Shown in pieces: positions 11,501-39,973 of a DNA stretch of 64,000 nt. The number at the start of each line of letters is the position of its first letter. The stretch's first letter is position 1. Source of the stretch: Eledone cirrhosa (taxonomy: Eukaryota). The notes beneath the pieces were generated by a model. It ran no database searches, was not told the DNA's origin, and saw only the letters and a program-made list of their open reading frames with translations. Location of the stretch: the NCBI GenBank assembly GCA_964016885.1, contig OZ024754.1:38006001-38070000 (forward strand), read 5' to 3'. The translations under genes were made by a program, and so were the position numbers.

Positions 11501-12179
11501 AAATAGACTGAAGTGTGAAGTGAAATAAGTACAACAAATCTATCTGTGAGTTGCTCTTAATGTGACCTGAAATTAGTTATTTTGTTTCAATATATCTGTT
11601 TAAGAAATAGACTGAAGTAGTGTGAATAATCAGTGCAACAAATCTGTGAGTTGCTCTCAATGTGACCTGAAATTAGTTATCTCTCTTCTATATATTTGCT
11701 GATGCAGAGAAGTAATAGTAACAGCAATGATTAAATACAATTGCCTAACTTCTAGAAGACACCAACTGAATGCCAACAATTAAAGCAACAACAGTAATGG
11801 CAGGAGGGAAGGGATTGATACGATGACATCGTGAAGGAAGCAACACTATCTTACCTGCCTCTAGTACCCCTCCCAAAGAAGGGATTGATGTCCCTAGCCA
11901 GATGAAAATAAAACAAAAACAGTTAAACATGTATATATACATATACATATATATACACATACATATATATACATAGATACATATACATACATACATACAC
12001 ATATATACATACATATATATATACATACATATACATACATATATATATACATACATATATACATACATATATATATACATACATATATATATACATACAT
12101 ATATATATACATACATATATATATACATACATATATATATACATACATATATATATACATACATATATATATACATACA

Positions 12180-12211
<32 letters not shown>

Positions 12212-12599
12212 CATATACATACATATATATATACATACATATATATATATACATACATATATATATACATATATATATACATACATATATATATACATAT
12301 ATATATACATACATATATACATATATACATACATATATATATACATACATACATACATATATATACATATATACATATATACATACACATATATATACAT
12401 ACATATATATATATACATACATATATATATACATACATATATATATACATACATATATATATACATACATATATATATACATACATACATATATACATAC
12501 ATACATATATATATATACATATATATATACATACATACATATATATATACATACACATATATACATACATATATATATACATACACATATATACATACA

Positions 12600-12645
<46 letters not shown>

Positions 12646-12664
12646 CATATACATACATACATAC

Positions 12665-12699
<35 letters not shown>

Positions 12700-15600
12700 A
12701 ACATATATACATCCAGCCATAGAAAACTTGGTAAACAAAGGTTTAGTTGTATCAAAGAGATGACAACCTCCTTGGGTGCTGGTACCACAATAAAATTGCT
12801 CGGGTGCATTCAAAAGGCTGCAGGAATGTTTATAAGTGAAATGAGGATCCCTAACTTGTCTGAGACCAGAGGCTCCTATTAAGTAATAACTTAGAACAGA
12901 CATTAAATGATGATGATGACGATACATACCAATCAGTTGTTCTTGACACAAATTCATTCCCACAGATCCTTACGCACTTACAATTTAACCTTTGGTATTG
13001 AAAATGTATCCTTCATCCTCCACATCTGACATAAAGGTTCTCTTATTTACTTAGAAATAGATGTGGAATTTGCCATGGAGATATCAGTGTTTTGGTCATG
13101 AGTACATCCCAGTAATGTTGACAATATAGTTATCTAACTATATCCCAGTAATGTTGACAATGTAGTTATTATCTAACTATATCACAGCAGAGTTGACAAT
13201 GTAGTTATTATCTAACTATATCCCAGTAATGTTGACAATATAGTTATTATCTAACTATATCACAGCAGAGTTGACAATGTAGTTATTATCTAACTATATC
13301 CCAGTAATGTTGACAATATAGTTATTATCTAACTATATCACAGCAGAGTTGACAATGTAGTTATTATCTAACTATATCCCAGTAATGTTGACAATATAGT
13401 TATTATCTAACTATATCACAGCAGAGTTGACAATGTAGTTATTATCTAACTATATCCCAGTAATGTTGACAATATAGTTATTATCTAACTATATCACAGC
13501 AGAGTTGGCAATGTAGTTATTATCTAACTATATCCCAGTAATGTTGACAATATAGTTATTATCTAACTATATCACAGCAGAGTTGACAATGTAGTTATTA
13601 TCTAACTATATCCCAGTAATGTTGACAATATAGTTATTATCTAACTATATCACAGCAGAGTTGACAATGTAGTTATTATCTAACTATATCCCAGTAATGT
13701 TGACAATGTAGTTATTATCTAACTATATCACAGTAATGTTGACAATATAGTTATTATCTAACTATATCCCAGTAATGTTGACAATGTAGTTATTATCTAA
13801 CTATATCCCAGTAATGTTGACAATGTAGTTATTATCTAACTATATCCCAGTAATGTTGACAATATAGTTATTATCTAACTATATCACAGCAGAGTTGACA
13901 ATATAGTTATTATCTAACTATATCCCAGTAATGTTGACAATATAGTTATTATCTAACTATATCCCAGTAATGTTGACAATATAGCTATTATCTAACTATA
14001 TCCCAGTAATGTTGACAATGTAGTTATCTAACTATATCCCAGTAATGTTGACAATGTAGTTATTATCTAACTATATCCCAGTAATGTTGACAATATAGTT
14101 ATTATCTAACTATATCCCAGTAATGTTGACAATATAGCTATTATCTAACTATATCCCAGTAATGTTGACAATGTAGTTATCTAACTATATCCCAGTAATG
14201 TTGACAATGTAGTTATTATCTAACTATATCCCAGTAATGTTGACAATGTAGTTATTATCTAACTATATCCCAGTAATGTTGACAATGTAGTTATTATCTA
14301 ACTATATCCCAGTAATGTTGACAATATAGTTATTATCTAACTATATCCCAGTAATGTTGACAATGTAGTTATTATCTAACTATATCCCAGTAATGTTGAC
14401 AATGTAGTTATTATTTAACTATATCCCAGTAATGTTGACAATATAGTTATTATCTAACTATATCACAGCAGAGTTGACAATATAGTTATTATCTAACTAT
14501 ATCCCAGTAATGTTGACAATATAGTTATTATCTAACTATATCCCAGTAATGTTGACAATATAGTTATTATCTAACTATATCCCAGTAATGTTGACAATAT
14601 AGCTATTATCTAACTATATCCCAGTAATGTTGACAATGTAGTTATCTAACTATATCCCAGTAATGTTGACAATGTAGTTATTATCTAACTATATCCCAGT
14701 AATGTTGACAATATAGTTATTATCTAACTATATCCCAGTAATGTTGACAATATAGCTATTATCTAACTATATCCCAGTAATGTTGACAATGTAGTTATCT
14801 AACTATATCCCAGTAATGTTGACAATGTAGTTATTATCTAACTATATCCCAGTAATGTTGACAATGTAGTTATTATCTAACTATATCCCAGTAATGTTGA
14901 CAATGTAGTTATTATCTAACTATATCCCAGTAATGTTGACAATGTAGTTATTATCTAACTATATCCCAGTAATGTTGACAATATAGTTATTATCTAACTA
15001 TATCCCAGTAATGTTGACAATGTAGTTATTATCTAACTATATCACAGCAGAGTTGACAATATAGTTATTATCTAACTATATCCCAGTAATGTTGACAATA
15101 TAGTTATTATCTAACTATATCCCAGTAATGTTGACAATGTAGTTATCTAACTATATCCCAGTAATGTTGACAATGTAGTTATTATCTAACTATATCCCAG
15201 TAATGTTGACAATGTAGTTATTATCTAACTATATCCCAGTAATGTTGACAATATAGCTATTATCTAACTATATCCCAGTAATGTTGACAATGTAGTTATT
15301 ATCTAACTATATCCCAGTAATGTTGACAATGTAGTTATTATCTAACTATATCCCAGTAATGTTGACAATGTAGTTATTATCTAACTATATCCCAGTAATG
15401 TTGACAATATAGCTATTATCTAACTATATCCCAGTAATGTCGACAATGTAGTTATTATCTAACTATATCCCAGTAATGTTGACAATGTAGTTATTATCTA
15501 ACTATATCCCAGTAATGTTGACAATGTAGTTATTATCTAACTATATCCCAGTAATGTTGACAATATAGCTATTATCTAACTATATCCCAGTAATGTTGAC

Positions 15601-17990
15601 AATGTAGTTATTATCTAACTATATCCCAGTAATGTTGACAATGTAGTTATTATCTAACTATATCCCAGTAATGTTGACAATGTAGTTATTATCTAACTAT
15701 ATCCCAGTAATGTTGACAATGTAGTTATTATCTAACTATATCCCAGTAATGTTGACAATATAGCTATTATCTAACTATATCCCAGTAATGTTGACAATGT
15801 AGTTATTATCTAACTATATCCCAGTAATGTTGACAATGTAGTTATTATCTAACTATATCCCAGTAATGTTGACAATGTAGTTATTATCTAACTATATCCC
15901 AGTAATGTTGACAATATAGCTATTATCTAACTATATCCCAGTAATGTCGACAATGTAGTTATTATCTAACTATATCCCAGTAATGTTGACAATGTAGTTA
16001 TTATCTAACTATATCCCAGTAATGTTGACAATATAGTTATTATCTAACTATATCCCAGTAATGTTGACAATATAGCTATTATCTAACTATATCCCAGTAA
16101 TGTTGACAATGTAGTTATTATCTAACTATATCCCAGTAATGTTGACAATGTAGTTATTATCTAACTATATCCCAGTAATGTTGACAATATAGTTATTATC
16201 TAACTATATCCCAGTAATGTTGACAATGTAGTTATTATCTAACTATACCCCAGTAATGTTGACAATATAGTTATTATCTAACTATATCCCAGTAATGTTG
16301 ACAATGTAGTTATTATCTAACTATATCCCAGTAATGTTGACAATGTAGTTATCTAACTATATCCCAGTAATGTTGACAATGTAGTTATTATCTAACTATA
16401 TCCCAGTAATGTTGACAATGTAGTTATTATCTAACTATACCCCAGTAATGTTGACAATGTAGTTATTATCTAACTATATCCCAGTAATGTTGACAATATA
16501 GTTATTATCTAACTATATCCCAGTAATGTTGACAATGTAGTTATTATCTAACTATATCCCAGTAATGTTGACAATGTAGTTATCTAACTATATCCCAGTA
16601 ATGTTGACAATGTAGTTATTATCTAACTATATCCCAGTAATGTTGACAATATAGTTATTATCTAACTATATCCCAGTAATGTTGACAATGTAGTTATTAT
16701 CTAACTATACCCCAGTAATGTTGACAATATAGTTATTATCTAACTATATCCCAGTAATGTTGACAATGTAGTTATTATCTAACTATATCCCAGTAATGTT
16801 GACAATGTAGTTATCTAACTATATCCCAGTAATGTTGACAATGTAGTTATTATCTAACTATATCCCAGTAATGTTGACAATATAGTTATTATCTAACTAT
16901 ATCCCAGTAATGTTGACAATGTAGTTATCTAACTATATCCCAGTAATGTTGACAATGTAGTTATTATCTAACTATATCCCAGTAATGTTGACAATGTAGT
17001 TATTATCTAACTATATCCCAGTAATGTTGACAATGTAGTTATTATCTAACTATATCCCAGTAATGTTGACAATATAGCTATTATCTAACTATATCCCAGT
17101 AATGTTGACAATGTAGTTATCTAACTATATCCCAGTAATGTTGACAATGTAGTTAGTATCTAACTATATCCCAGTAATGTTGACAATATAGTTATTATCT
17201 AACTATATCCCAGTAATGTTGACAATATAGCTATTATCTAACTATATCCCAGTAATGTTGACAATGTAGTTATTATCTAACTATATCCCAGTAATGTTGA
17301 CAATATAGTTATTATCTAACTATATCCCAGTAATGTTGACAATGTAGTTATTATCTAACTATATCCCAGTAATGTTGACAATGTAGTTATTATCTAACTA
17401 TATCCCAGTAATGTTGACAATATAGCTATTATCTAACTATATCCCAGTAATGTTGACAATATAGTTATCTAACTATATCCCAGTAATGTTGACAATGTAG
17501 TTATTATCTAACTATATCCCAGTAATGTTGACAATGTAGTTATTATCTAACTATATCACAGCAGAGTTGATGAGTTAGCCATTATCTAACACAAAGTAGA
17601 TATAAAATGCTGGAGGGAGTCAAGTACTCTCAGTCACTTAACACAAATAAAACCAGGATATTCACCGGCCTCTTGAGCCTCCAGGTTTGAGGTAGACTTT
17701 AGACTTTAGATATTATTAACCACATGCTGTCATATGGAATGTCTTGGCACTGCTGTCCTTTTTCAGGTTTAACCACGGCTGATTTTTTTTCAGAGGGAGG
17801 TGGAGAAAAAGGAAGAGAGAGTACTGGACTAGACAGATACTTCATTTATCAACCCTGATAGGATAGAAAGCTAAGTTGACTTAGGTAGATTTTGAACTCA
17901 GAACAGCAACGAATATAGCAAAGCATTCTATTTGCTTCCCAAATAACGTCACACTCACACAGATAACATGCTTGCTTGCATGCATATATG

Positions 17991-18057
<67 letters not shown>

Positions 18058-21000
18058 GTTATTGGCAGCCACCCTGTGATCGAGTATGGCTATCAAACAA
18101 CATCAGCTTGAGCCCTGTGGAAGAAGGGGAGATGAGGAAGAGAGAGGAGGAGGAGGAAGAGGAAAGAGGGAGTGGGTGGAAGTGGAGGAGGTTTAGAGGT
18201 GGAGGAGGTTTAGAGGTTAGTGAAAAAAGAAGGGAAGGGTTGGCAGGGAGAGAAATGTTAGATGGAAGTCTTACACTCTGAAAAGACCATAGTGGCTTGT
18301 AATTTCAAGTCTGTCTAACTTGCTTTGTAAGATCTTTAACTGTGTTGGCAATTTAGAATTACTGCCGACATCAATGACAGTATATGGTACCTGAAAACAA
18401 ACAATACAAGTTAGTAAGGAAATAAGGCAAACAGCACAGCGAAAGAAACACAATATTTTAATCCTTTAGCATTTACATTACTCTATATTTATCAATATAT
18501 TTTCACAGTAAAGGCTTTATCTCACATAATATCGAATCTATGAGATTTTGATATTATTTATTTTAAGAACAATAGCTTAACATCAGTATGAGCAGCCTGT
18601 TATAGCCGTTTTGAACAGAAAGAGGTGAGAGAATTCTGGCTGGATATGGCTAGTTTAAATGCTAAAGGGTTAAGACTTTTATTACCATATTTCTAATGAA
18701 AAACTCAATCTATCATTTACAAATCATCATCATCATCATCTTCTTTCTGAGAGTCCTCAAACACTCCTTCCAGCAGGTCCTGTCAGAAGCAACCATTTCC
18801 AACTGATCTCGCTGGATCCCCAAGTGAGACCAGCCAAGCTCATGGATCATATTCAACCATCTTGCTCAGTTTACCCGTGGGTCTCCTGCTGGTTGGTTTT
18901 GCCTGTAAATTCTGTCCAGCAATTCTTTCCTCAGACATTCTAACCACATGCCCATAGTATCGGAACTGTGATATCTCGATTCAGAGAAGTAGCGGTTTGA
19001 ATGCTAAAAGGTTAAAGTTATATCATTTAAAGGTTTTATCACCCATAAGCCCCAACCAGTCTCCACCCCTTTTAGTTTAGAGATGAAAGATTCTTTTGCT
19101 TATATTTCATTTTTTATTTTGGGAAAGGGGTTGGACTATCTATTAGACCATAGTCCAATGGCTAACACCATCTATTATACCACAGTCCAATAGTTAACAC
19201 TATCTATTATACCACAGTCCAATAGCTAACACTATCTATTAGACCAAAGACCAGTGTTTTCTAGTGAATAAGACACTTGGCAATGATTAGACAACAGAGA
19301 GACAGCAAATACTGAAACATGGAACCAATCTTTCATCTCTAAATATTATGTTAACCCTTTAGCATTTAAACTGGTCATATCTGGCCAAAATTCTCTTACC
19401 TCATTCTGTTCAAACTGGCCGTAACCGGTTGCTCATACTTATGTTAAGGTATTCTTCTCAAACTAAATAATATCAAAATCTTGTAGATTCGATATTATGT
19501 GATATAATTATGTGATGTAAAGTCTTAACCGTGAAAATATAATAATGTTTATGCTAAATGGTTAATAGTCTGAAAAATTAGTATTGTATTAACAACTCAA
19601 CTACTCAGGCATTTATGCATTTAACCAAAAAATATTACCTTTTCAATTACCATATTTCCAATGAAATACCCTCACTATATGTTTCAATTAGTTTTGAAAA
19701 TCATCAACATTTTGGAAGAATTTAATATAATTAACTTTTTCCTTATTAAGCCAATGTTTGGAACATTACTTGATGAAAATTTGCTAAAAACACTTTGATA
19801 TAGGCTTTAATATATGTATATTTATTTTTGTATCATAAAACCAGGGCAGTTTCAGGTGGTTTGGTATCAAAAGAGTTAATTAAAATACATCAACCCCCAA
19901 CCCCCCAAAAAAATTATAAAAGCAGGTTGACAAAATAAATAAAACATTTAACATATAAATATAACATTTAAAAGGAAATAAAATATATTATATTGGAAAA
20001 GACCATAAATTTCATTGAGTCAATTATATTATCCCCTAATAGTACTGCCTCCCTTATATTATGAATCCCTGAAGGATAAAAAGCTAAAAGAGCAAACTTG
20101 TCTGAATTTGAGTGTAAAGAGACAGAGGCATAGCCGTGGGATTAAGGAGTTCACATTGCAATTATATGGATCTGAGTTCAGTCACACAGTGTGACCACCT
20201 TGGGCAAGTCTTCTGCTATAGACTTAGGTTGATCAATGACTTGTGAGAAAAATTTGGTATATGGAAACTGCTGTAGCCCATTATATATATATATATGGAG
20301 GCACATGGCTTAGTGGTTAGAGCATTGGCCTTGCAATCGAAAGGTTGTGAGTTCAATTCTCAGACCGGGTGATGTGTTGTTTCCTTGAGCAAGACACTTT
20401 ATTTCACATTGCTCCAGTTTACTCAGCTGTAGAAATGAGATAATAGGGACTGGGGTCCATATCATTCCACTGCAAAGTGGTCGTGGAGGTGCCACGGCAA
20501 AAAAGCACCCAGCACTCACTGTAAATGAGGTTGGTGTTAGGAAGGGCATCCAGCCGTAGAAATCAAGCCAGCATCAGTTCCCGTCCCACCCTTGCAAGCA
20601 GGGAAAAAGCGGACGTAAAATGAAATGATGATGATGATGATATGTTTTCATTGGTGGGAATTCTACTTGTTTAAATTCTACCAACCAATCAGTGTACTCT
20701 TTCCGCAATCGTCCTCCTAATTTTAGAGGTCCCGTACTAGCACAATGGTGAACTGATAAAACCAGGAAGCTAGCAGACGTGCTAATCATGCACACCCTAT
20801 AGACTGATATCTTATTGTATGAACAACTCTGCTGATGAGTTGTAATTAGCCTAGATTGCGTAACATTTGCTGACACTACACAATCCTTTGCATGTAACAT
20901 ATTTAACAATTGTTATAAGTGGAAGATTACAATGAAATGGAATTCCATCCAGGAGATCGATTAGTGTTACCAATACCTGAACACTGCCATAAAACTCACT

Positions 21001-24000
21001 AATCAATTAATTGTGTCCACTCTGTTACACAACGTGCAGCCAATCAACTGCATACTTATCTCAAGTGTGTGAGCTATGTATATGTCTGTGTATATATATG
21101 TATATATAAACACACATACATGTGTGTATGTTTATGTCCTCTAACTTTACAATTAAACAAAATAAGGATCGATAAAGTAAATACCAGACTTGAAAAAATA
21201 AGAAATGGGGTACTGGGATCAATATGGTGAACTAAATCACGGTAGTGCCTGGATTATAAATATAGCTTGACCAGTTGATAATACGGTATGCGACAGAAAA
21301 GGAAAAAAAAAGAGTGATATGCATGACAGGTTAACCTGGGAGGTTAAGCAGTTGTAGTCACTGAAAAAGGTAGTAGTAATACCAATAATAGTTGGAGCCT
21401 AGTAAAGGTCTTGACAAATACATCGTACAAATAGGGGTTGCAATATAGGTGGAGCACTTATAGAAAACAGCACTGCTTGGAACAGCTGGAATACTCCAGA
21501 GAGTGATTGAAAAATAAGGGGTGTTACCTCAGTTCACTGACAGTGAACAGCTGACACTGTAATACATCAGTGTTAGAATGATAATAATAAAATAAAGTAC
21601 AAGTCAAGTACTTGAGGCAATTTAATCGACTTTCCCTTCTTCCAAAAAATTGCTGGCCTTATGCCTGAATTAGAAATAATTATAATTATTATTTGTGTTT
21701 TTCCTCTCCCTGCAGTTTTGTTTCTATTTCTTGCCGAGTGTCTTCCCATTATTATAATGTAGATTTCCGTATCGGTAGAGTGTCAGACAATATGCTTTGT
21801 GGCACATAGTTATGGCTCTTTACGTTCTGAGTTCAACACTTAGCCATACGCTATATCACATCGCTTATATAAATGTTCGTATATTTGCATCATAATGTTT
21901 ATATTTCTGTCGCTAATTTTCTCCGTTTTCATTTTCATAACATTTCACCGTAATGCAGTTTATATATAATATCGTCTTTTTTAAATATATCCTGGATTAC
22001 TTTACTGATTACAGAAGAGAGTGTAGCATAGTCTCTCTTCAATTTCTGTGCATATTCTCAATTTAATTTTTATTTGATGTATCATATTTACATGCATGTA
22101 TATTTGCGTATAATATGTACACTACACATGCTAGCAGGAAACCACCTGAAGAGTGGTTTCCTGCAAGTGAAAATAATAAACGAGAGTCTGGATAAACTAA
22201 AACAATATTCAGTGGCTTTTGATTATGAATCAATTATTTCACCTAATTAACTTCTTTTTCCCCTTCTTTTATGCAAATTAGTCAAATTACTGTCAAACTA
22301 AGTGAAAGCAAAGAACTAAACTATAAAAAACAACACACAACAAAAACAAATCAAAGGGTTAGAAAACAAGAAAACTGCTACAGTATGGCCAGAATCGTGA
22401 TGATTTGTGACCAATTAAAACTAAAATATGCACAATATAATTCATGCAACTACTCTTGGGTCCCAAATAATAGGGGGGAGCAGGGTTGGGCATTTGCTTA
22501 ACCCTTTAGCATTTAAACCGGCCACATCCAGTCAGGATTCTCTCACCTCTTTCTGTACAAACTGGTCGCTCATACTTATGTTAAGGTATTGTTCTCAAAA
22601 TAAATAATACCAAAATCTCGTAGATTCAATATGACGTGAAATAATTATGTAAGGTAAAGCCTTTACCATGAAAATACAATAGTAAATATAGAGTAATGTA
22701 AATACTAAAGGGTTAAATTCACCTCCACCCAAATATTTCCCCATACTTCACACACACATTCCAGTTATAAAGACCTAAATAAAAAAAATATCACTCCTTT
22801 TGTAGGTGGTGCTGGGGGTGGATTAGTTCATGCTTATGTACAGTGGTGTATGTGTGCGTGTGGATGAAGGTGTGAATGTGTAATTACATGTGTATGTAAC
22901 AATATGTATGAGTGCATTTATGCTATGTAAATAGCTTGAATATGTGTATCGGTGTATGTGTAAGTACTCGTGTGCTTACACATACCTCTCTACACCCCGC
23001 CCCTAAAGATCCTGACATGTGACTACACCTCTTACATTATCAGAGGTCACGCTTCCCACCTAATCCTCCTACACTTACCATATATCCATAACATCATACC
23101 TATCTCCCTTCTCTTACACTCCACCCCCACAGATCATTGAGGGCTCGTCAGTTGAGACAAAAACTGAACATCTGTAGTGCTGGTGCCACAAAAATGCACT
23201 CCGTATACAATGTAAGGTGGTTGGCAATAGGAAGGGCACCCCACTGTAGATATAGCATACTAAAAAAGGTCACAAGGACTCTTCAGTTGTGTCTCCCTAT
23301 TGTTGGTGATCTACACGATAAATGCACCCAGTACACTCTGTAAAGTGGTTGATGAAAAGAATGGGATCCAGCTTGTAGAAATATTGTTGATCAATAGGTT
23401 AGGAAGACTTTTCAGCTATGTCAAAGACATGACAACTTCACTAGTGTTGGTTTCACAATAAAATCCACTTGACAGAGCGCAGGACCATATATAAACAAGA
23501 TGGAGGCACTCAGTCCATCTGAAAGATCAGTAGCCCCACTGGAGTATTGAATTCGTCTGAAGACCGAGCCAAATGTTGCTAACAGGGAAAACAGACATGA
23601 AATGATGATAATGATATATATCCCAGCTGTAAAAACTAATAATTAGCCACATCGATTTCCATAGATCAATATTAGTTTTGTATTTGTGTCACATAGCCTA
23701 CAGTTGTCCAAACTAAATAACATCTGTTGCAGAATTACACCAGACTGAATGGAAAACCTGTTAAGATTTTGAGGGCCCAATTCACTCCCTGTAACCAAGC
23801 ACAGTTATGTCTGTGGTCATTTTCTAGTTGCTTGGTTTCCTTTGCAGTGAAAGCTCATGGCTGACTAGTTAGAGGGTTGGGGAGTTCAATTCCCTGACCA
23901 AGCAGCATGTCCTTGCGCAAGACACTATTTCACATTGCTCCAGTTCACTCAGTAATAAAAATGAGTTGTGACGTCAATGGTGCCAAGCTGTATTGGTTTT

Positions 24001-27000
24001 TACCATTCCTTTGGCCAATATTGGTGGTGTAGAGGGAAAACTAGTATTCAAGGGTGACTGCTAGTCTTCTACAAAGAACCTCGCCTAGGCTTATGTCTCA
24101 GAGGGGAGCTTTCTAGGTGCCAAACCGATGGTCATTGAAGACTGAAGAGGGGTCTTTACCCTTTAGTTTCCTGTTGACTAAGTCGAAAGGGAGATGCAAT
24201 AAAAGAAAGGGAGAAATAAAGAAAGAGTTGGTATTTAAATTTAAAAACACTTGATGACAAATCAGTATATGTCTGAGAGGTTTACATTTTAATAGGAATT
24301 TTAAAGAGATACACAAGGGACATAATATATATTTCAATGAGAACTAATTCAAACAAATACACACACACTCATAAATGTACCAACACATACACACACATTC
24401 ACACAAATGCATGCACACATACACACACACTCATAAATGTGCCTACACATACACACGGCAGTGGTATTGAAACAGGATGTGCTGAATCATTATAATGTCA
24501 TCTTGACATCTATAACACTGCTTTATAAAATAACTCGACATGCCAGAAATAACAGCCAAATATCCCTCAAATTACACCCTAATGACTTAAAAAAAAAAAA
24601 AAGAACATGCTGGATGAAAAAGACATGATGATCATGACTGGAATGCCTTTGTTCATGTCTGCTTGATTGGGGCTGACTTAGAGCTAAACAACAACAGCTG
24701 AAGTATCAAGCCAATGAAGAAACCTTAGTGTGGTTGCTGGACTTGCTAGAAATTGAAGCCAAATCACATTGAGCTAAAGTGTTTTATACATACATATATA
24801 TATATACACACACAAATATATATATATATATATATTTACATACATACATATACATTCACATGAGGAAGGCATAGCATATTGTTAATATGATATCCCTGAA
24901 ATATATATAATGAAATAAATATGGTTTTATAAATATAGTTTCCATTTATTTAATATCGTATATATATATATATATACATACATACACATACATATATGAA
25001 GGGCAGCCAGCTGTAGAAACCAAGCCAAAATCAGTTCTGTGTGAGCAAAACACGGTACTCCAACCTAGATGTCTCACAACAGGACAGCATGTCTAACCTA
25101 TGCTAGTGTAGAAAATGGACATTAAATGATGATGATGATACATACATATGTGTTAGCACGTTAATGACCTGACAATCTCTCTGGTTCCATGATAAAATGC
25201 ACCCAGTGCACTCTGTAAAGTGCTTAGCATTCAGAAGGGCATCCATCTGTAGAAACTTTGCCAAAATCGTAATATATGTAAGCAGAATGTGATCCCCGAC
25301 CTGTCTAAGATGACAATAGCTATCATGAAGTACTGACTTGGCCTGTGACTACCAGTCTAACCCATGGCAGCATAGAAAAACATTAAATAATAGGTTACAC
25401 ACCCACAAGATTATTAACCATATTTCCAACAACAGCCCTGGGCACATTTTTGAATTCCATGTGTCTAACACCTGTTGACATGCTTACAAAATTAGAAAAC
25501 AGTACAACTCCCATGACTTTCGGAAACATTTTTTCACGCTCAGAGTTGCTGAAGCATGGAACTGGGACACTGCATCCTTCAAAACTGCCATGCTTCCCAA
25601 AATTCGTCAACACTCCACCTGATATTCCCCTTCAATAAACATACATGCGCGCGTGTGTGTGTCATGCACTGTTCACTTTCCTGACTTTTGTACATTATTC
25701 TCTGTACTATACATGCACTTTTGATAAGTTGTAGTGCACCCGAGCACTGTACACAATAATTTTCATTATTATTATTTCCAAAACACAATCCAAAGAGATT
25801 TTAGTTATGGAGTGTGCATATATGTGTGCGTGTGTTTATGTATGTGTGTGAATGTTTATGTGTGCATGTAATGTATGAATGAGTTTGTATGAATTTGTGT
25901 CCATAATAGTTAATTAAAGGGACGGGTTTAAATCTTTGGCGTAAACAGCAAAAACAAACAAAAACAACAGCCATGATTAGTATGAAATGTTAACGATTAT
26001 TAATTATTATTATTATTGTTGTTATTGTCTTCATTCTCTCACTACCACTCTCTAGTCAGATGTACCTTTCCAGGGAGCCATAAGGGGCAGCAATTCGAAA
26101 TGGCGCAACTGTGTCATGGAGTTCTTTGATTTCAGGGCACACTGTTGATAAAGCCTGCTTATGGAGATGGGAGAGAGGCACCTTGAAAGAAAACAATATT
26201 TACACATTCATAGAGGCTCCATTCACAGAGATAAAACAAGAGCTTAAACTATGAGAAAATGATCAAGGAATGAAATCTGGAAAAAGCAGAATTTTGATGA
26301 AGTTGAACTCAACCATACAACTGTCATTTGATGGCTAAGATCTTTGATACTTACATCCTACCAGTTGTGTTATATGGTCTTGACTGTGGTAATTGGACGA
26401 CAAGGTCACTTCAGAAGCTCTCTACATTCCAGAACCACATCATGAGACTTATGACTGGCAAGCAGCTCAGCGACCGTATCTGTATCAGTGAGCTGCTCAA
26501 TATTACCAGACTTAGACCAATTACATCAATTGTCAAGTCAATAATACTCAAACTATACGGCCATATATAAAGATCAACTCATGGTGTGATAGGTTATGCC
26601 TGGAAGGAAGATTAGCTGGTAAAAAAAGCAGAGGCCGACAGCCAAAACGATGGCTCGATAATGTCAACTTTATGGACTGGACTTGATCTTTGCTCTTTGA
26701 ATTCTGCTGCTGGTGATCGAACTTTGTGGAGAGCGAGATCTCGTGTTGATGAGCAGTCTGCAACTGGCGGAGTTTAGCGTCACAAGAAGAATACAACTGA
26801 CAGTTGTATGGTTAGTTTGAGGGTCAAAAAATAATATACAGTGGAACCTCGGATCACAAATTCATTCATTCTTGAAAGCCATTAGTCACCTGAAAGGTTC
26901 GTAAACTGAAACTATTTTCCCTCATATGAAGTGTTGAGAGAGAAATCCAGTGAGAGAGAGAGTGTGTGTGAAAGGCAGATAGATATCGCCATAGTACCTA

Positions 27001-27467
27001 ACTAAACAGAAAGTGACACTGTCCCACCGATACTCCCAGCTTGTCGCCAACCGTTGTTGCCGGTTTGAGCATTCGTTACTTGAGACACTGTTCATCAACC
27101 AAGATGTGTAATGTTCGGAAAAATTGTTCGTGAACCAATTTGTTCATGATGAGAAGCATTCGTGAACCAAGAATCCGTTGTATATATGTATATATATGTG
27201 TGTATATATATATAATTGGTGTTGGATGCTTAACGCGTCCGTATGCGGTAGGCCGTATGAGCACTCGATGCCCTCATAGAGCAGAGTATGATATCACAGA
27301 AAAAAGAGAATCTGCTTCGTAGAATCGAGATGTATCCGAGGAGGACCGCGCGATTTCAGAGTCAGGTTTGATCCCCTTATCAATCGTGCCTAGAGCTGGT
27401 CGCCCGAGAAATAATTGTAATATGTCCAATAAATTCCTTTCGTCGCTACACTGATTCTCTTTTTTCT

Positions 27468-27504
<37 letters not shown>

Positions 27505-28588
27505 TAAAGTGAAAATAATTATCATATTATTAACAGGCTGTGTGGTTAAGATGTTCACTCTGTAACCACATGATTTCAGGTGCAGTCCCACTTGCAGTGC
27601 AACTTCGTCTTCTGCAGATTGACAAATGCATTGAAACTGAAATTTGGTAGACAGAAACTGTGCTGAAGCACTTTGTGTGAGTGTGTGTGAATGTGTATGT
27701 GTGAGTACCTGTGTGTGTGAGTGTATAAGTGTGTCTATGTGTATGTATGTGAGTGTGTATGTTTTGTCTATGTCCTGTAACTTAACTGTCAAACAAATGG
27801 AGATCAATGTTGGGATGTGCAAAGGCTAGAAGGAAATGAGGTTAGTACAGTCTGTTGAAAGTGTAACATGTGTGTGCATGAAGGACAGAAGACTAATGAG
27901 CTGAGAGAAAAAACAGAGTATAATAGGAAACAGCTGGTATCGACATGTGATGTGTCAAGAGGATGAAAAACTGAGTAAAGAAGTTACAAGCAATCCAAGT
28001 GGAAGGAGGTTGTGGGAAAGGAAGACTGAGGAAGACAGAAAAAGTCATGAAAGATGATCTGAGGAGACTGAATCTTAACAAGAAGATGATAAATGAATGT
28101 GACATGTGATGAGACATTGTGCTGGAAAAACCACATCCAAACCATATAAGAATGAAAAAATAGATATAAAAAGACAACGATAATATATATTTATGTGTAT
28201 AACATCATCATCATCATCATTTAATGTCCGTCTTGTCTGTAAACACGGGTGGGACAGTTCTTCATAAACCAAATCAGTATTTAACCCATTAGCATTTAAA
28301 CAGGCTGTATCCAGCCAGAATTCTCTCACCTTTTTCAAACCGGTCTTAACTGGCCACTGATACCGACATTAAGGTATTGTTTTTAAAATAAATAATATCA
28401 GAATCTCATAGATTCGATATTATGTGAGATAATTATGTAAGATAAAGCCTTTACTGTGAAAATACAATAGTAAATATAGAGTAATGTAAATGGTAAAGGG
28501 ATAAACGGAACCACTGACTTCTCAAATGGGTTGAGAGCCTATATCTTGCTTACATATGTTTCTGTGCTCTACCAAGTTCATTTTATCT

Positions 28589-28621
<33 letters not shown>

Positions 28622-28625
28622 TTAC

Positions 28626-28657
<32 letters not shown>

Positions 28658-28885
28658 TTACATATATACATATATATATATATATTTACATATATACATA
28701 TATATATATATATTTACATATATACATATATATATACATATATATATACATATATATATACATGTATATATACATGTATATATACATATATATATACATA
28801 TATATATACATATATATATACATATATATTTACATATATATATATACATATATATATACATATATATATACATATATATATATAC

Positions 28886-28932
<47 letters not shown>

Positions 28933-29063
28933 CATATATATATATACATATATATATACATATATATATACATATATATATATATATACATATATATATA
29001 CATATATATACATATATATACATATATATATACATATATATATACATATATATGAATACACAC

Positions 29064-29106
<43 letters not shown>

Positions 29107-29800
29107 TACATACATACATATATTCGCCATTTTAGATTTACAAATTAGTCCTCATTTAAAATCATTCAGACTAAGGCATACACTCTGATGTATAGTTGTC
29201 TCTGAGTATTCCTCTGAAGGAATAATTATTCCATTAATGGTAAATTTTGTTCGCTGTTGTATGGAGGTACATGACTTAGTGGTTAGAGCATTGGCCTTGC
29301 AATCGAAAGGTTGTGAGTTCAATTCTCAGACCAGGTGATGTGTTGTTTCCTTGAGCAAGACACTTTATTTCACATTGCTCCAGTTTACTCAGCTGTAGAA
29401 ATGAGATTATAGGGACTGGGGTCCCTATCATTCCACTGCAAAGTGGTCGTGGAGGTGCCATGGCAAAAAAAAAAAAGCACCCAGCCCACACTGTAAAGTG
29501 GTCGTGGAGGTGCCACGGCAAAAAAGCACCCAGCACTCACTGTAAATGAGGTTGGTGTTAGGAAGGGCATCCAGCTGTAGAAATCAAGCCAGAATCAGTT
29601 CCCGTCCCACCCTTGCAAGCAGGGAAAAGCTGACGTAAAATGATGATGATGATGATGATGATATGTATATCAGCACACAAGACGTGTGTGCTGATACTCA
29701 TTTTTTTTTTCAGTTCAGTTGGTTTACATGCCTCATTATTAGACTAGATTATTTAAATATACACATATACACATAAATATATATATACATACACACATAT

Positions 29801-29837
<37 letters not shown>

Positions 29838-30296
29838 CATACACACACACATATATATATATATACATACACACACATATATACAGACACATACACATAT
29901 ATATATATATACACACATATATGTGTACATACACACACATATACACATATATATATATATACATATACACATATATACACACACACTACACATATATATA
30001 TATATATACATACACACACATATATATACATACACACATATACATATATATACATACACATGCACACACACACACATATATATATATACATACACACACA
30101 TGTACATACATACACACACTTGTATATATATATATATATATATATATCAAATGAAAAAACAGAGTTAAAAAATCTCGTTAAACCCCAGTAATTTAATGAG
30201 CTCAAGGAATAGGTACCAGGCTCTTCATAATACAATATATATAGAAGAAAACACAAAAGGGTATGTTTTCTAAAACATACCCTTTTGTGTTTTCTT

Positions 30297-30329
<33 letters not shown>

Positions 30330-33300
30330 TATATATATTATTGGTGATTGGGTAGTGTATTGCTTATAAAAGTGGCAATAACATTTTGGTCAGGGTGAAA
30401 ATCTGAAATTACATTGATGCAATTTGATTTCTCACAAATTGTATTAACCCTTTAGCATTCACATTACTCTATATATAGTTATATTTTCATGATAAAGGCT
30501 TTATCTCACATAATTATTTCACATAACATTCACATTACTCTATATATACTATTATATTTTCATGATAAAGGCTTTATCTCACATAACATTCACATTACTC
30601 TATATATACTATTATATTTTCATGATAAAGGCTTTATCTCACATAACAATCACATTACTCTATATATACTATTATATTTTCATGATAAAGGCTTTATCTC
30701 ACATAACAATCACATTACTCTATATATACTGTTATATTTTCATGATAAAGGCTTTATCTCACATAATATCTCACATAACATTTACATTACTCTATATATA
30801 CTGTTATATTTTCATGATAAAGGCTTTATCTCACATAATATCTCACATAACAATCACATTACTCTATATATACTGTTATATTTTCATGATAAAGGCTTTA
30901 TCTCACATAATTATCTCACATAACATTCACATTACTCTATATATACTGTTATATTTTCATGATAAAGGCTTTATCTCACATAACATTCACATTACTCTAT
31001 ATATACTATTATATTTTCATGGTAAAGGCTTTATCTCACATAATTATCTCACATAACATTCACATTACTCTATATATAGTTATATTTTCATGATAAAGGC
31101 TTTATCTCACATAATTATCTCACATAACATTCACATTACTCTATATATAGTTATATTTTCATGATAAAGGCTTTATCTCACATAACATTCACATTACTCT
31201 ATATATACTATTATATTTTCATGGTAAAGGCTTTATCTCACATAACATTCACATTACTCTATATATAGTTATATTTTCATGGTAAAGGCTTTATCTCACA
31301 TAATTATCTCACATAATTATCTCACATAATATCGAATCTATGAGATTTTGAAAGTATTTATTTTGAGAACAATACCTTAACATCAGTATGAGTGGCTAGT
31401 TACAGCCAGTTTCAACAGAAAGCGGTAGAGAATTCTGGCCGGTTTATGTCAGTGTAAGTTGATATCAATTACACAGCACATTTCTGCACACATACACCAT
31501 AGGGAAAGGGAAGGGGGCAGAATATCTGCTAGTAATAACAATGGTTTCTGATATAGGCACAAGGCCAGCAATTTTGGGAGAAGGGAAAGTCGATTAAATT
31601 GACCCCAGTGCATGACTGGTACTTTAAGGATGAAAGGCAAAGCTGACTTCAGTAGGATTTGAACTCATAACATAATGGACCATAACTCTATGCTACGAAG
31701 CATGGTGTCCAACGCTCTACTGATTCTGCCAACGATGTTATACAACATAAAATTAAATAGTTGAATGAAACTGATCAAAGCATGGATTAAAATGATATCA
31801 GTAATTAACTAATTAGAAATTAACTGATTAGAAAAAGAAAATACCTTCAAGTAGAAAAAATACTAATGAGCCAAGAAAGGTACTTCTATAAGCATTTGAC
31901 TTGCTCAATATCACAGCTAAATGCCACCTGCTTCTCGCACTATTTTTGAAATAGGAAACTTATCACCATTATTCCACTTTTCCATGCCAGCATAGGTTAA
32001 ACAAGACTTTTCTTTTGGGGGATAAATGGACGGGTGGTTATGGTTGGGTGCCTTTCCTGATGCCAAATCTTTTTGTTACCTCCCTTGACATGCAAGAATT
32101 CAATATACTAATACTGAAAACTGGGAAATACACAGTATTGTTTGTATACTTAAAATCTTAAATCTGTGGATAAGTTCTGCTTCCCACAACCACAAAAAAA
32201 TACAAATATCTTGCTCAACGTTAGCTGCTACTTAACAATAACAACCATCAAATAATTTAGAGAGACTAATTTCAGCTGACAAAGAATTGTTTGAGATTGC
32301 TAAAAATGGTAACTAAATCACCTCCAGATCACACCTTATTGTCTCAGAAAAAAGTAGATAATTTAGTCCTAGATACATGTCTGAAAGAAAACACCATGGG
32401 ATGACAATAGCTTCAGCTCATTTGACAAAGATTGCTGAAGTTATTTTTTCATTTAATTAAATTGTTTTTAAATTAAAAATTGAAATAAAATTAAATAATG
32501 AAGCATCCACAAGGGATGAAAAGAGAAACATTTTTTTTCTCTCTCTCTAAAATATAGCAATAATTAAACAGGTGAGAATAAGGTAAAATATTACTTGCAG
32601 CCTTTCAGGTAACAAAATAGGCGTACCTGCGAAAAAGACCATAGGAGCTGGTTATCTTATAAGGTGCTGCCAGCCTGTACATATCATAGATATCTTTGGA
32701 AAGGGATCTGTGTACTGAGCCGACAACACGGGAATAGGGAACCTAGAAAAACAGAAATTAGAACATCTATGTGGACAATGTCATTTGTTTGTTACTTCTT
32801 ATTGGGGGATGAGGGTTAAATCCCCACCAACATCAACACCACTTTCTAGTTCCCTCTTAAACAATAAATAATTAAAGAGTTTAGGAACCAATGCTGTGTA
32901 TAGTTTTTTTCTAGGTTCTGAGGAATCACTGGTTCACTACATTTCCAGCGACAAAGTTGTGTTTGTAAAACTTGGTGGAGAACAGAGATCAACAAGAGAC
33001 TTAGTATTGTTTCTTTGCTAATTAATATAGGTCATATCTTTATTAGAGTCCCCCCCCCCCTTAGTTTTTAGAATAGGTGCACTGATTTCATATATGTTGT
33101 AAGGGACAACTGAAAAGGTTTATGTTAGAAAGAGTATCTAGCTGGAAAACATTGCCTCAAACCATCTCATCTAAACACCCATGCCAGCATAAAAATGTGG
33201 AGAGAAAAAATAATTGTTTCTACTTTAGGCACAAGGCCAGCAATTACCCAGTGCATTACTGGTACTTTATTTTATCGACCCCGTAAGTGAACCTCGGCGG

Positions 33301-33420
33301 GATTTGAACTCAGATCGTAAAGGGACGTAACTATGCTGGAAAGCATGGCGTCCGACCCTCTACCGATACTGCCAATCCAAAAAAATAATGAAGATGGTGA
33401 TGATATTGTGTATATGTATG

Positions 33421-33468
<48 letters not shown>

Positions 33469-34908
33469 CTAAAGATAGTTACTTTAGATCATCTCTATTT
33501 ATTTTATTATACATACTAGCAGAAAAACCACCGTTCAGGTGGTTTTTCTGCCAGCATGTGTAGTGTGTATATTGATATTATACGCAAGTATATATACATG
33601 TAGATATGATACATCAAATAAAATCGTAATTGACAATATACACAGAAATTGAACGAAGACTGCGTTACACTGTCTTATGTAATCAGTAACGTAATCCATG
33701 ATACATTTAAAAAAGATGATATTATATATAAACTGCATCAGGAGAACATTAGTGACGGAAATATATGAATGTTTATTTAAGCGATCGTTAACCGGAAGTG
33801 TTGACATTTGAAAATTTTAAAGAAGTGAATCTTTAAATAACCAATAAAATATATCTAATCAAGAGTTACGAAATTTATTACATAAATTATGTAATATTTA
33901 TTCATTATTTATTCAAAGTAATCCATCTTATTTTACAGTTGGGGTAAAAAAAATATATTCTGGACACAGTCCCACACTCCTTTCTTTATTATAGTTAAGA
34001 TTTCGAAGAGGCAAGGCTTATGTATAACATAATCTAAAACATGTTCTCGTCAGACAAAATGCATAGAAGATGCAGGATTCTTTTCATATAATGGTGGTCA
34101 AATGAACTGGACAGATCGGTGACAACCAAGCATATGATTAGAAAAAAACCCCAACACAGAAGATGTTACGTAAGTGGGGAAAAAATCCAATTGGACTTAA
34201 CGTTTTTATAAATCAACTAACTCTTTTTCATTGAACAATATATATATATAAATATATTAACTATGGAGGCACATGGCTTAGTGGTTAGAGCATTGGCCTT
34301 GCAATCGAAAGGTTGTGAGTTCAATTCTTAGACCGGGTGATGTGTTGTTTCCTTGAGCAAGACACTTTATTTCACATTGCTCCAGTTTACTCAGCTGTAG
34401 AAATGAGATGATAGGGACTGGGGTCCCTATCATTCCACTGCAAAGTGGACGTGGAGGTGCCACGGAAAAAAAAGCACCCAGCACTCACTGTAAATGAGGT
34501 TGGTGTTAGGAAGGGCATCCAGCTGTAGAAATCAGGCCAGAGTCAGTTCCCGTCCCACCCTTGCAAGCAGGGAAAAAGCGGACGTAATATGAAATGATGA
34601 TGATGATGATGATGATTAATATGAGTCGGGAGCTAATGGCTATGAAACTAGCTGTTGAAATGACAAGGGCTCAGCCACCAGATCCTACCTCTTTGTAATA
34701 TGATTATACTCTACTACCCTAAATATCGAGAACTCTGTTGGAAAAAGGAATTATTAAAGATCTTGTTTGAAAGCTTGTCTGTTTCTTTTTTTTAAACATG
34801 ACATAGATAAAGAGGAAGGGTCACACCCACGACTTTTTCTTAGGGTCTCCATGACTGGTGGAAGAAGAGAGAAAGTGGAAGAGAGACAAGTTCAGCACAG
34901 CTAGGTTT

Positions 34909-34953
<45 letters not shown>

Positions 34954-37766
34954 ACTATAACAACAACAACAATAATAATAATAATGAATATGACTCCTAA
35001 TCTAGACACAAAGCCAACAAAGTGTGGGGAGAGGAAAGTTGATAATATCAACCCTTGGTACATTACTGGTACTTTATTTTATCGACCCTGGGTGGATAAA
35101 AGAACAATAATAAATATGTTTCTACTTTTGGCACAAGGCCAGCAAATACCCAGTGCATTACTGGTACTTTATTTTATCAACCCCGTCAGGATAAAAAGCA
35201 AAGTTAACCTCGGCGGGATTTGAACTCAGACCCTAAAGGGACGTAGCTCTATGCTGGCAAGCATGGCGTCCGACCTTCTACCGACAATAATAATAATAAT
35301 AATGGTTTCTTATATAGGCACAAGGCCAGACATTTTGGGAGAGGGTAAGGTCGATTAAATCGACCCCAGTGCGTGACTGGTACTTTATTTTATCGACCCT
35401 GTGAGGATGAAAGGCAAAGTTAACCTCGGCGGGATTTGAACTCAGTCCGTAAAGGGACGTAACTCTATGCTGGAAAGCATGGAGTCCGACCATCTACCGA
35501 TACTGCCAAAATAATAATAGCTTCTAATTTAGGCACAAGGCCAGCAATTTATGGGGGAGCGGACACCAACCACAGTCTTAAAGTAATAGTTTATGTATGA
35601 ACTGTTGTCGACTGTTCTATATGTAGTAAATAATACTAGTCACATGAGCTGACAATGCTCCCACCACTACCACAACCACTAGTAGTAGTAGTAGTAGTGG
35701 AAATATAGAGATATGGAAACCACTACCACAACCACCAGTAGTAGTAGTAGTAGTAGTGGAAATATAGAGATATGGAAACCACTACCACAACCACTAGTAG
35801 TAGTAGTAGTAGTGGAAATATAGAGATATGGAAACCACTACCACAACCACCAGTAGTAGTAGTAGTAGTGGAAATATAGAGATATGGAAACCACTACCAC
35901 AACCACTAGTAGTAGTAGTAGTAGTGGAAATATAGAGATATGGAAACTACTACCACAACCACCAGTAGTAGTAGTAGTAGTAGTGGAAATATAGAGATAT
36001 GGAAACTACTACCACAACCACCAGTAGTAGTAGTAGTGGAAATATAGAGATATGGAAACTACTACCACAACCACCAGTAGTAGTAGTAGTAGTGGAAATA
36101 TAGAGATATGGAAACCACTACCACAACCACCAGTAGTAGTAGTAGTGGAAATATAGAGATATGGAAACTACTACCACAACCACCAGTAGTAGTAGTAGTA
36201 GTGGAAATATAGAGATATGGAAACCACTACCACAACCACCAGTAGTAGTAGTAGTGGAAATATAGAGATATGGAAACTACTACCACAACCACCAGTAGTA
36301 GTAGTAGTAGTGGAAATATAGAGATATGGAAACCACTACCACAACCACCAGTAGTAGTAGTAGTGGAAATATAGAGATATGGAAACTACTACCACAACCA
36401 CCAGTAGTAGTAGTAGTGGAAATATAGAGATATGGAAACCACTACCACAACCACCAGTAGTAGTAGTAGTGGAAATATAGAGATATGGAAACTACTACCA
36501 CAACCACCAGTAGTAGTAGTAGTGGAAATATAGAGATATGGAAACCACTACCACAACCACCAGTAGTAGTAGTAGTGGAAATATAGAGATATGGAAACTA
36601 CTACCACAACCACCAGTAGTAGTAGTAGTAGTAGTGGAAATATAGAGATATGGAAACTACTACCACAACCACCAGTAGTAGTAGTAGTAGTAGTGGAAAT
36701 ATAGAGATATGGAAACCACTACCACAACCACCAGTAGTAGTAGTAGTGGAAATATAGAGATATGGAAACCACTACCACAACCACCAGTAGTAGTAGTAGT
36801 GGAAATATAGAGATATGGAATGAATGAATGTAAGAAAGAAGGATTTTAGAAAGGAATGAATACAGAAAGATAGCAGTGAAGGTGGAAATATGGAATGGAT
36901 GCTTGAAGAATGGAAAGAAAGAAATAAAGAAGAAATTAGGAGAAATAAGAATAAACACGTACCAGACTGATGGCAAACATACTAGCTGCAAGAATAGCGA
37001 TTATTGTTACTCCAGCCGAAGATAAGACTTTACGTAACAGTCCTTTCTCATTCTTCCAACACCTGAAACAGTAACAAAATATAGTAGGCACCTCTTAACC
37101 AAATATACACCCCAACCAACTTCCCCTACTCCATCCTCCCACTCCCACCACCCTTTCTCTTTAAAGTTAAGTTGGTACCACAACATCCAGTCCAAACTAA
37201 TAAGATATCGAGATTGAGATCGTGTAGGTGTCACGACAAAAAAACACACAGTCCACGCTGTAATGTGGCCGTGTAGGTAACACGGTAAAAAGTTCCCAGT
37301 TCCACACTGTAAACGTGGTTGGTGTTAGGAAGGGCATCCAGCTGTAGAAAACCTGTCAGATAGTCCTATACGAGCAAGACAACCAATCTTGCCTCAAGTG
37401 GGACAACTCCCGTCTAACTCATGCTAGCGGGGAAGATGGACGTTAATTGATGATGATGATATGCCTCCTCTACTTCAGTAAGTTGTAGTAATTTAGAGTA
37501 TGCTGATGATGGATTAATAACTGTTGTAATATATCATCATTATCATCATCCTCGTTTAATGTCTATCTTCCACGCTAGCATGAGTTAGACGGGAGTTGTC
37601 CCACTTGAGGCAAGATTGATCGGGTGACCGTGTCTTGCTCGTATAGGACTGTATCTGGCAGGTTTTTTACAGCTGGATGCCCTTCCTCACACCAACCACA
37701 TTGACAGTGTGGACTGGAGCCTTTTTACCGTGGAAGATAGACATTAAACAATGATGATGATGATGA

Positions 37767-37812
<46 letters not shown>

Positions 37813-39761
37813 CATTATCGTTTAACAATCATTTTTCCACACTAGACGATTTAGGCATTGGGTCAGGTGACCATGTCTTGCTCACACAGAACCGTTTCTG
37901 GCTTGGATTCTATGGCTGGATGCCCTACCTAACATCAACCACATTTAGATATAATATATATATACACACACATACTTATTTCAAAATACATACCCTCATC
38001 ATTTTTACGTAAATTTTTCATACGCTGGTGTGGATTGGACAGGGCTTTCTGAGACGATGTTCTACAGCATGACACCCTTTCTGACACTAACCCTTTGTAG
38101 TTGCTTCATAGGTCATGCAGGGTTATGGTGTACCTATTCTTCTAAGCCAGACAGACACACACATCATCATGGAATCTGATGAATTCACCACTTACTTCCT
38201 CCAATAAAAAGCACCCCCAACACCTACCACTCCAACTTCACTCTCCACAAAAAAAAAAAAAAAATATGGGTTAAAAAATAAAAACTTAATTACCTGACAA
38301 AAGAAATGAGCACTTCAATAGCTAAGGCCACTGCCCCAATATACATCGAGATAGGGACAACTGTAGACAGAATGTCAGTAAGATCTTTCTTCGTAAAAGC
38401 TGAAAATTGGAAATTTACAAAAAATAGAACAATTACAAGATACAAGAAAAAAGGCATTGTTGTAAATACAACCATGGCCATCACCATTTTTGTATAAACA
38501 GGTTTATCTATCTATCTTTACGTCATCTATCTAGAAGAAGGAGGCAAAGAAGGAGAAGAAGAACAAGAAGGCAAAGAAGGAAGCGAAGAAGAAGAACTAG
38601 AACAAGAAGAAAAAGAAGAAAGCAAAGGAGAAGAAGGAGGCAAAGAAGAAGAAGAAGAAGAAGGCAAAGAAGAAGAAGAAGAAGAGGAAGAAGAAGGAGG
38701 AGGCAAAGAAGAGGAAGAAGAAGGAGGAGGCAAAGAAGTAGAAGAAGAAGGCAAAGAAACAGCAGCAATCTATTTACCTATTTGTGTTTTAAGTGAGGTG
38801 TAGCCTGGTCCAAATCGCAGGGTGAATCCAAACACCAATACGTAGATAATAAAGACATAGACAGCAATTGTAATAATCCAGTCTGCCATTCGATTCAACA
38901 AGGACTTAGCTTCAGCTGGGTGACCTGCAATAAAAGACCAATCTTAACTATAATAAAGTAAGGAGTGTGGGACTGTGTCCAGAATATATTTTTTTATCCC
39001 ATTTGTAAAATAAGTTGGATTACCTTCAATAAATAATGAATGAATATTACATAATTTATCTGCTAAATTTCGTAGCTTTTGATTAAATATATTTTATTGC
39101 TTATTTAAAGATTCACTTCTTTAAAATTTTCAAATGTCAACACTTCCGGTTAGCGATCGCTTAAATAAGCATTCATATATTTCTGTCACTAATTTTCTCC
39201 TGATGCAGTTTATATATAATATCATCTTTTTTAAATGTATCATGGATTACATTACTGATTACATAAGACAGTGTAACGCAGTCTTCGTTCAATTTCTGTG
39301 TATATTGTCAATTACGATTTTATTTGATGTATCATATCTACATGTATATATACCTGCGTATAATATCAATATGCACACTACACAAAGGGTGGTTTTTCTG
39401 CTAGTTATGCTTAATGTCAGAGAGAAATATCCACACTGGGTATCTAAAAATCTAAAGTCTGTCTCGAGCCCAAAGGCTCATCAGGCCAGAGTTTATCCAG
39501 GTTTCAACGGGTGTTACGCCCAGAGCAATTTTGCTCCGGACATAACACCCGTGTCTGAAAGAACCTGCAGAAGTAGAATCTGCCAGATCCATACAAGGAC
39601 CATGACTCGAGCTACCAGCTGGCGAAACATTTGTAACACGAAATAAACTAAGTCCAGATGCAGCACTGATTTTTCGTTTTCTTTATAATATCTTTATAAT
39701 ATATATATATATATATATACATAAATATAAATACATACACACACATATATAATATATATAT

Positions 39762-39798
<37 letters not shown>

Positions 39799-39941: not shown

Positions 39942-39973
<32 letters not shown>

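Follow-up and report, generated by a model that had tools for sequence, protein, structure and literature searches.

Tandem duplicated exon substitutions have been curated in human genes, and the main text of the survey counts 236 such events in 214 genes and describes them as rare, old and common in membrane proteins; most of the events with peptide data were tissue-specific (PMC9741552). The term LMF is absent from the main text of that survey, the supplementary tables of which could list LMF2. LMF1 is described, in the passages of the source that deal with it, as a chaperone of the endoplasmic reticulum (ER) whose lumenal C-terminal tail is needed for lipase maturation and which has a redox role in the ER (PMC11526315). 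A 2026 paper linked human LMF2 to the stability of HMGCS1, and its main text never says isoform (PMC13683977). LMF2 itself has been kept from bacteria to vertebrates and its molecular job is barely known. The locus considered here is the LMF2 gene in a stretch of 64,000 nucleotides (nt) of the octopod Eledone cirrhosa (assembly GCA_964016885.1, contig OZ024754.1, positions 38,006,001 to 38,070,000), referred to below as the window. It holds three tandem copies of exon 12 in the order 12A, 12C, 12B, and the reading frame stays intact only when a single copy is included. The copies are very likely mutually exclusive, giving three proteins of equal length that differ in residues 409-447.

All three copies are 116 nt long, of phase 0-2, preceded by AG, followed by GT and free of stops. 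A preliminary description, made from the letters of this DNA, had reported two of them, 12A and 12B, on the minus strand. The coordinates and translations of both were confirmed (Table 1), and the claimed identity of 12 in 39 residues holds as 12/38 whole-codon residues, the junction residue differing (Arg vs Val), with 50/116 nucleotides identical. What did not stand was the count, as a third copy, 12C, and an optional 39-nt micro-exon had been missed. 12C shares 9/38 residues with 12A and 8/38 with 12B, and the nucleotide likeness among the copies is 44-50/116. In a set of 333 open AG..GT candidates of phase 0-2 (98-134 nt, minus strand) only 12A, 12B and 12C gave cross-scores of 23-45, the best scores of the remainder against the copies being ~0 or lower. 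A profile built from 73 LMF2-like proteins, with no 12C form included, finds 12C (E-value 0.0023), and 12A, 12B and 12C match identical positions of that profile. Adjacency, homology and a shared length and phase are features of mutually exclusive exons that arise by tandem duplication, as the preliminary description had proposed. A search with the family profile found no second copy of any other LMF2 exon in the window, and Pfam returned nothing meaningful for the exon 12 peptides taken alone.

The copies have been conserved to differing degrees. Against Octopus models, 34/38 residues are identical for 12A (P0124, Octopus vulgaris/O. sinensis), 33/38 for 12B (P0126) and 26/38 for 12C (P0004), and the micro-exon shares 9/13 with P0125, so the conservation claimed earlier for 12A and 12B was borne out; for exons 8, 10 and 11 the corresponding values are 25-29 of 34-37. 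When the comparison is made with the cuttlefish (Sepia pharaonis) cluster the values are 27/38 for C, 24/38 for B and 17/38 for A, and at the level of sequence 12C is the copy best conserved between the window and Sepia.

Inclusion of A, C or B alone (3 of the 8 combinations of the copies) results in a protein of 647 amino acids (aa). The zero-, two- and three-copy combinations (5/8) stop early, at a distance of 427-550 nt ahead of the last junction. 12A followed by 12B runs into a stop within 12B and skipping of all copies leads to a stop in exon 13, computed readings that agree with the one-or-the-other frame put forward in the preliminary description. Stops that far upstream of the last junction mark messages for nonsense-mediated decay, and such messages are therefore expected to be targets of it. 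Whichever of the three copies precedes it, the micro-exon contributes 13 in-frame aa.

Exclusivity by steric hindrance depends on an intron between the copies that is too short to splice; here the introns are 6,445 and 7,675 nt, lengths that rule out the simple, short-intron form of it. Incompatibility of the U2 and U12 spliceosomes, which needs minor-class sites at one flank of the copies, was also rejected, as the introns of the gene are all GT-AG with donors that, judged by eye, are major-class-like. In the Dscam type of system one conserved intronic docking site pairs with a selector beside each copy. Eight region/flank tests of duplex energy for a docking site gave a best fraction of control trios of 0.08, none being above control exons; a cruder helix score, applied to one genome, gave 2/8 low fractions, one of them inside a tandem array. 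The acceptor of 12C is AAG, the sole one among the gene's 18 acceptors, and the donor of 12B is the poorest consensus match of the gene (5/9). The most likely scheme is that exclusivity would come from a regulated choice among weak splice sites, with nonsense-mediated decay of the frame-shifted zero-, two- or three-copy messages as a putative backup filter.

Four sequencing runs (X1-X4), all from one study and none recorded as RNA, match this DNA. Runs X1-X3 cover 30/30 bins of positions 8700-11925. Run X4 behaves as RNA, since it yields a contig of 2105 nt (depth 353) in which exons 14 and 13 are joined precisely, with the 563-nt intron 13 removed. The loose end of this contig at exon 13 equals window positions 26068-26097, the 3' end of 12C, the other loose end is the start of exon 15 and the micro-exon is skipped. 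The contig thus shows splicing of 12C to exon 13 for this organism, and the isoform in its transcript contig is the copy that had been overlooked. Junctions of 12A and 12B and the micro-exon are not in the one spliced X4 contig, and contigs show presence only. Unnamed Logan proteins from relatives, encoded on contigs of 2.3-2.6 kb, represent A (P0137), B (P0006), C (P0139) and B with the micro-exon (P0135). These contigs are too short to hold the introns, if gene length is as in the window, and are therefore taken to be of transcript length. Each copy is accordingly found alone in transcripts, C in this organism and A, B and C in the Logan proteins and NCBI models of relatives.

The spread of the copies among animals was followed in 30 protein clusters, the two largest of which were represented by 15/82 and 15/33 members; the cluster counts leave out two singletons and one unnamed cluster. 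At least two versions of the exon 12 segment (two or three) were present in 15 of the 17 multi-member clusters of molluscs and brachiopods, and more than one version in 0/10 named clusters from outside these groups, which comprised echinoderms, arthropods, cnidarians and turtles. Snails and clams have a comparable choice, between two versions. Octopus models of equal length differ only within residues 411-447. Pairs of equal-length isoforms differing only in the exon 12 interval were found in Babylonia, Littorina, Gigantopelta, Aplysia and Physella, and also in Mytilus, Pecten, Argopecten, Ostrea, Saccostrea, Octopus, Liolophura and Lingula. In each of the 17 tabulated isoform pairs an Arg-ending version is matched with one whose last residue is Val, Thr, Met or Ser. 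The single version of Haliotis scores as the non-Arg type but ends in Arg, and in most bacterial LMF2-like proteins the junction residue is not Arg. 12C was found only in Octopus, Sepia pharaonis and one related unnamed cluster. Searches with 12C alone gave no matches although known 12C proteins exist, so such blanks are uninformative on the range of 12C. The micro-exon occurs in relatives only after B, in four proteins.

Phylogenetic analysis of exon 12 (38 columns and 39 rows, with the junction residue dropped and single-copy species excluded) placed 16/17 Arg-type rows on one side of the tree. Cephalopod A is nested among the Arg-type copies of gastropods and bivalves (15 rows, support 90/81), the 12C copies form one clade (100/100) and Lingula joins weakly (65/80). 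A single clade of all cephalopod copies, a group named before the tree was seen, was rejected by the approximately unbiased (AU) test (p 0.031), and the Arg/non-Arg label requires two changes on this tree, which was built without that residue. Pairing like with like beats crossed pairing in 19/21 cephalopod-bivalve and 11/15 cephalopod-gastropod comparisons, which are not independent, and it wins in 34/35 bivalve-gastropod and 12/12 comparisons of chiton with bivalve or gastropod. We infer from these sequences that A and B probably arose before the cephalopod-gastropod-bivalve split, which dates to the Cambrian, and that C would have arisen later in the coleoid line, before octopus and cuttlefish separated. 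The preliminary description had called its two versions ancient and proposed that the duplication be dated in relatives; for A and B such an age relative to the split of the three classes is likely.

Two observations outside the molluscs touch on the same subject. The Lamellibrachia model P0199 contains 17 residues of a first exon 12 copy and then a whole second copy, a hint that the exon may have been duplicated in an annelid too. In Lingula (P0025, P0156, P0157) a second equal-length swap, with 16 differences, lies at residues 199-248, at the position of exon 7, and suggests another duplicated exon in brachiopod LMF2; by profile search the window holds one copy of the exon at that position.

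What the swap changes in the protein was considered on an AlphaFold2 model of the A form of O. vulgaris, with a mean predicted local distance difference test score (pLDDT) of 87 and a predicted template modelling score (pTM) of 0.90. Exon 12 encodes the end of a helix (383-412), two helices at 416-421 and 424-436 and, over residues 437-448, a less certain loop with a short helix; by this prediction residues 409-447 start at the end of a membrane helix, pass through a short amphipathic helix and enter the most conserved motif. The stretch 422-436 has an amphipathic character in each of the three forms of Octopus vulgaris. The net charge of the window exons is +4 for A, -1 for C and +2 for B. 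The last six exon 12 residues fall in the most conserved motif of the family, in which none of the 73 aligned proteins (bacteria included, no 12C form) departs from Gly443, Leu444, Phe445, Met448 and Thr449. Leu444-Phe445 is kept in 292 of the 295 motif-bearing homologues (from 319 fetched, bacteria included, the rows not being independent) and the three that lack it are all 12C forms; the micro-exon also places its 13 additional aa within this motif. The C-terminal tail of LMF1 is lumenal, and by analogy the exon 12 segment is likely to face the ER lumen at the membrane surface. It is likely that the swap tunes the most conserved region of LMF2; it may change client binding or activity at the lumenal face of the ER membrane, and this putative change could depend on tissue or stage.

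A number of points weigh against an old and mutually exclusive set. Junction evidence in this organism is from the 3' side of exon 12 (12C-13) only and rests on one contig of one run, the kind of which is not recorded; contig evidence reveals presence only, so double inclusion could escape. The XP_ and CAI isoform models are automatic predictions, and Sepia pharaonis model P0134 joins C and B with four extra residues. The duplex-energy tests gave no docking-site signal in the window and pLDDT over residues 441-450 is only 63. Haliotis (3 members) and one venerid cluster have a single version, the tree has 38 columns only, its key branch (90/81) is not starred and the chiton Arg-type row lies outside that branch, and Lingula pairs like with like in only 5/16 comparisons. 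The single version of Haliotis, the presence of 12C as the sole copy in a transcript contig of this organism, its unique AAG acceptor and the poor donor of 12B would also fit a gene in which one copy works and the rest are degenerating remnants or noise that is seldom used. This is very improbable, as all copies keep length, phase and open frame, are 26-34/38 identical to their Octopus counterparts, a level comparable with that of exons 8, 10 and 11, and each is conserved to the cuttlefish cluster and present on transcript-length contigs of relatives. Fusion of haplotypes or paralogues into one locus during assembly, for which no point was found, is effectively refuted by the low nucleotide likeness of the copies, by the lack of any other doubled exon in the window, by the single match each of exon 14 and exon 12A in the organism's own 3.0-Gb genome and by the Sepia model, which has C before B in the same order.

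That the copies are used but the molluscan classes and brachiopods each duplicated the exon independently, without a single ancient event, is unlikely. According to the main text of the human survey (PMC9741552), orthologous genes have often acquired tandem duplications convergently. The tree has few columns, with no firm place for Lingula or for the chiton Arg-type copy. Against this stand the rejection of a cephalopod-only clade, the two changes of the Arg/non-Arg label and the nearly uniform like-with-like pairing of bivalve, gastropod and chiton copies. For Lingula alone the position differs, since its weak support in the tree and its pairing indicate that the pair may be an independent duplication, which is plausible with chances about even. 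12C could also be an off-switch or dominant-negative form, with the frame kept and the motif broken, that lowers LMF2 activity; its loss of the otherwise conserved Leu-Phe is what such a form would show. This role is possible but doubtful, as 12C is the copy best conserved between the window and Sepia and is the path of the only contig seen, at considerable depth, so that an altered positive function fits at least as well. The exon 12 cluster is regarded as a genuine, old set of mutually exclusive exons.

A further line of evidence concerns the fold. Foldseek with the full-length model returned vitamin K-dependent gamma-glutamyl carboxylase (GGCX) at ranks 1-15 (best E-value 4e-4). A VIA structure search of 48,161 chains gave GGCX a Z-score of 11.4 (root-mean-square deviation 7.6, 304 residues aligned), the next being 7.5, and a further VIA comparison gave 12.5-14.5 over 338-373 aligned residues, the next being 6.4. 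LMF2, on the model of the O. vulgaris A form, is thus predicted to share the overall GGCX/HTTM fold; it differs from GGCX in an identity of ~10% and a TM-score of 0.30-0.36. The active-site residues of GGCX named in the relevant part of the source are Asn159, His160 and Tyr395, the last of which binds the substrate glutamate (PMC12647623). The membrane part of LMF2 aligned weakly to a profile made from 26 carboxylase-like proteins of bacteria (E-value 0.004, probability 8%); in this alignment one lysine motif aligns, and the carboxylase Asn-His pair does not fall on like residues of LMF2. The exon 12 motif was not placed on the Tyr395 loop of GGCX by a single exon, by the bacterial VKGC-like profile or by a sliding motif. 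With the C-terminal 253 aa modelled separately (Bulinus P0011), Foldseek gave no match under an E-value of 0.001 and no GGCX row, no solved structure matching LMF2 by sequence was found, and the ESM Atlas gave one HTTM-named cluster at 0.79, under its own bar. As a speculative extension, held with low confidence, LMF2 may be an unrecognised enzyme-like relative of the carboxylases in which exon 12 forms part of the working site, a spliced switch in molluscs since the Cambrian to which coleoids would have added the motif-breaking 12C and the micro-exon as specificity variants. If true, these natural variants of coleoids could reveal the job of LMF2.

The organism's own vitamin K-dependent carboxylase gene was located by PF05090 and PF22777 elsewhere in its genome (L001-L007, G000:C1, ~51.51-51.55 Mb). 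Many bacterial LMF2-like proteins (among them P0088, P0089 and P0104) carry PF04134 and some are named in their source as DCC-family thiol-disulfide oxidoreductases, in keeping with a role of the family in redox chemistry. The Clytia LMF2 cluster (P0041) has an extra Pfam domain, PF01549.

The gene model was built by mapping LMF2 proteins of Octopus and Argonauta, the nearest named proteins, onto the DNA (Table 1). Both PF06762 and PF25179 match window exons above cut-off, and on these domains and its closest named homologues the gene is LMF2, the name it had been given in the preliminary description; 562-571 of 647 aa (~88%) are identical to the Octopus LMF2 models. The earlier placing of exon 12 just ahead of the conserved C-terminal domain was likewise supported.

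Table 1. Coding features of LMF2 in the window (positions within the 64,000-nt stretch)
Feature	Position	Strand	Remarks
Whole coding span	5399..61509	-	16 exon positions in the coding sequence; a single exon 12 gives 647 aa
Coding exons upstream of exon 11, part 1	61509-61416, 51600-51550, 49366-49164, 46953-46925, 45895-45693	-	
Coding exons upstream of exon 11, part 2	45285-45260, 44147-43995, 41376-41265, 38924-38778, 38399-38294	-	
Exon 11	36963..37062	-	Constitutive; ends in phase 0
Exon 12A	32627..32742	-	116 nt; first copy; junction residue Arg
Exon 12C	26066..26181	-	116 nt; middle copy; AAG acceptor; Ser-Leu replaces family Leu-Phe
Exon 12B	18275..18390	-	116 nt; last copy; junction residue Val
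Micro-exon	11855..11893	-	Optional; 39 nt; phase 2-2; +13 aa inside conserved motif
Exon 13	9624..9745	-	Constitutive; phase 2 start; PF25179 LMF1_C match
Coding exons downstream of exon 13	9060-8841, 6700-6589, 5548-5399	-	

The window also contains repeats. Between 12B and the micro-exon lies a 4.5-kb tandem array (13106-17561) with 115 copies of a 39-nt unit at 94% matches, and further tandem arrays are found at 35663-36820 and 30456-31316. On the minus strand, a 221-aa open frame at 561-1223 is one that we take to resemble a mariner-type transposase, and short open frames in intron 1 of LMF2 (56767-58849) presumably resemble the end of a LINE element.

The splicing pattern of LMF2 exon 12 is of a familiar kind and is already in automatic annotation. 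NCBI models of LMF2 from Octopus sinensis, O. vulgaris and O. bimaculoides (isoforms X1-X5) hold the same A, B, C and B-plus-micro-exon forms, as unlabelled automatic isoforms, and NCBI gene models carry such forms for many other molluscs. The preliminary description knew of no such exon pair in LMF2; this is right for the literature searched, where titles and abstract openings of the papers listed gave no description of the cluster (supplementary splicing tables could list LMF2) and no link of LMF to HTTM or GGCX, and wrong for the databases. Its two isoforms correspond to the annotated A and B forms, and annotation gives four forms or more at this position. The segment of 39 residues is varied, near-invariant residues included, and the variants have been kept across molluscan classes, so that it points to a functional determinant; the variants are ready-made natural material for assays of LMF2, and 12C adds a coleoid-specific exon to the short list of cephalopod splicing novelties. 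Unlike the human set, the locus has three copies and a linked micro-exon, and the turtle, insect, echinoderm and cnidarian clusters of LMF2 have one version. Like the tandem duplicated exon substitutions described at the outset, the copies of LMF2 exon 12 are adjacent, homologous, of equal length and phase, old and in a membrane protein.

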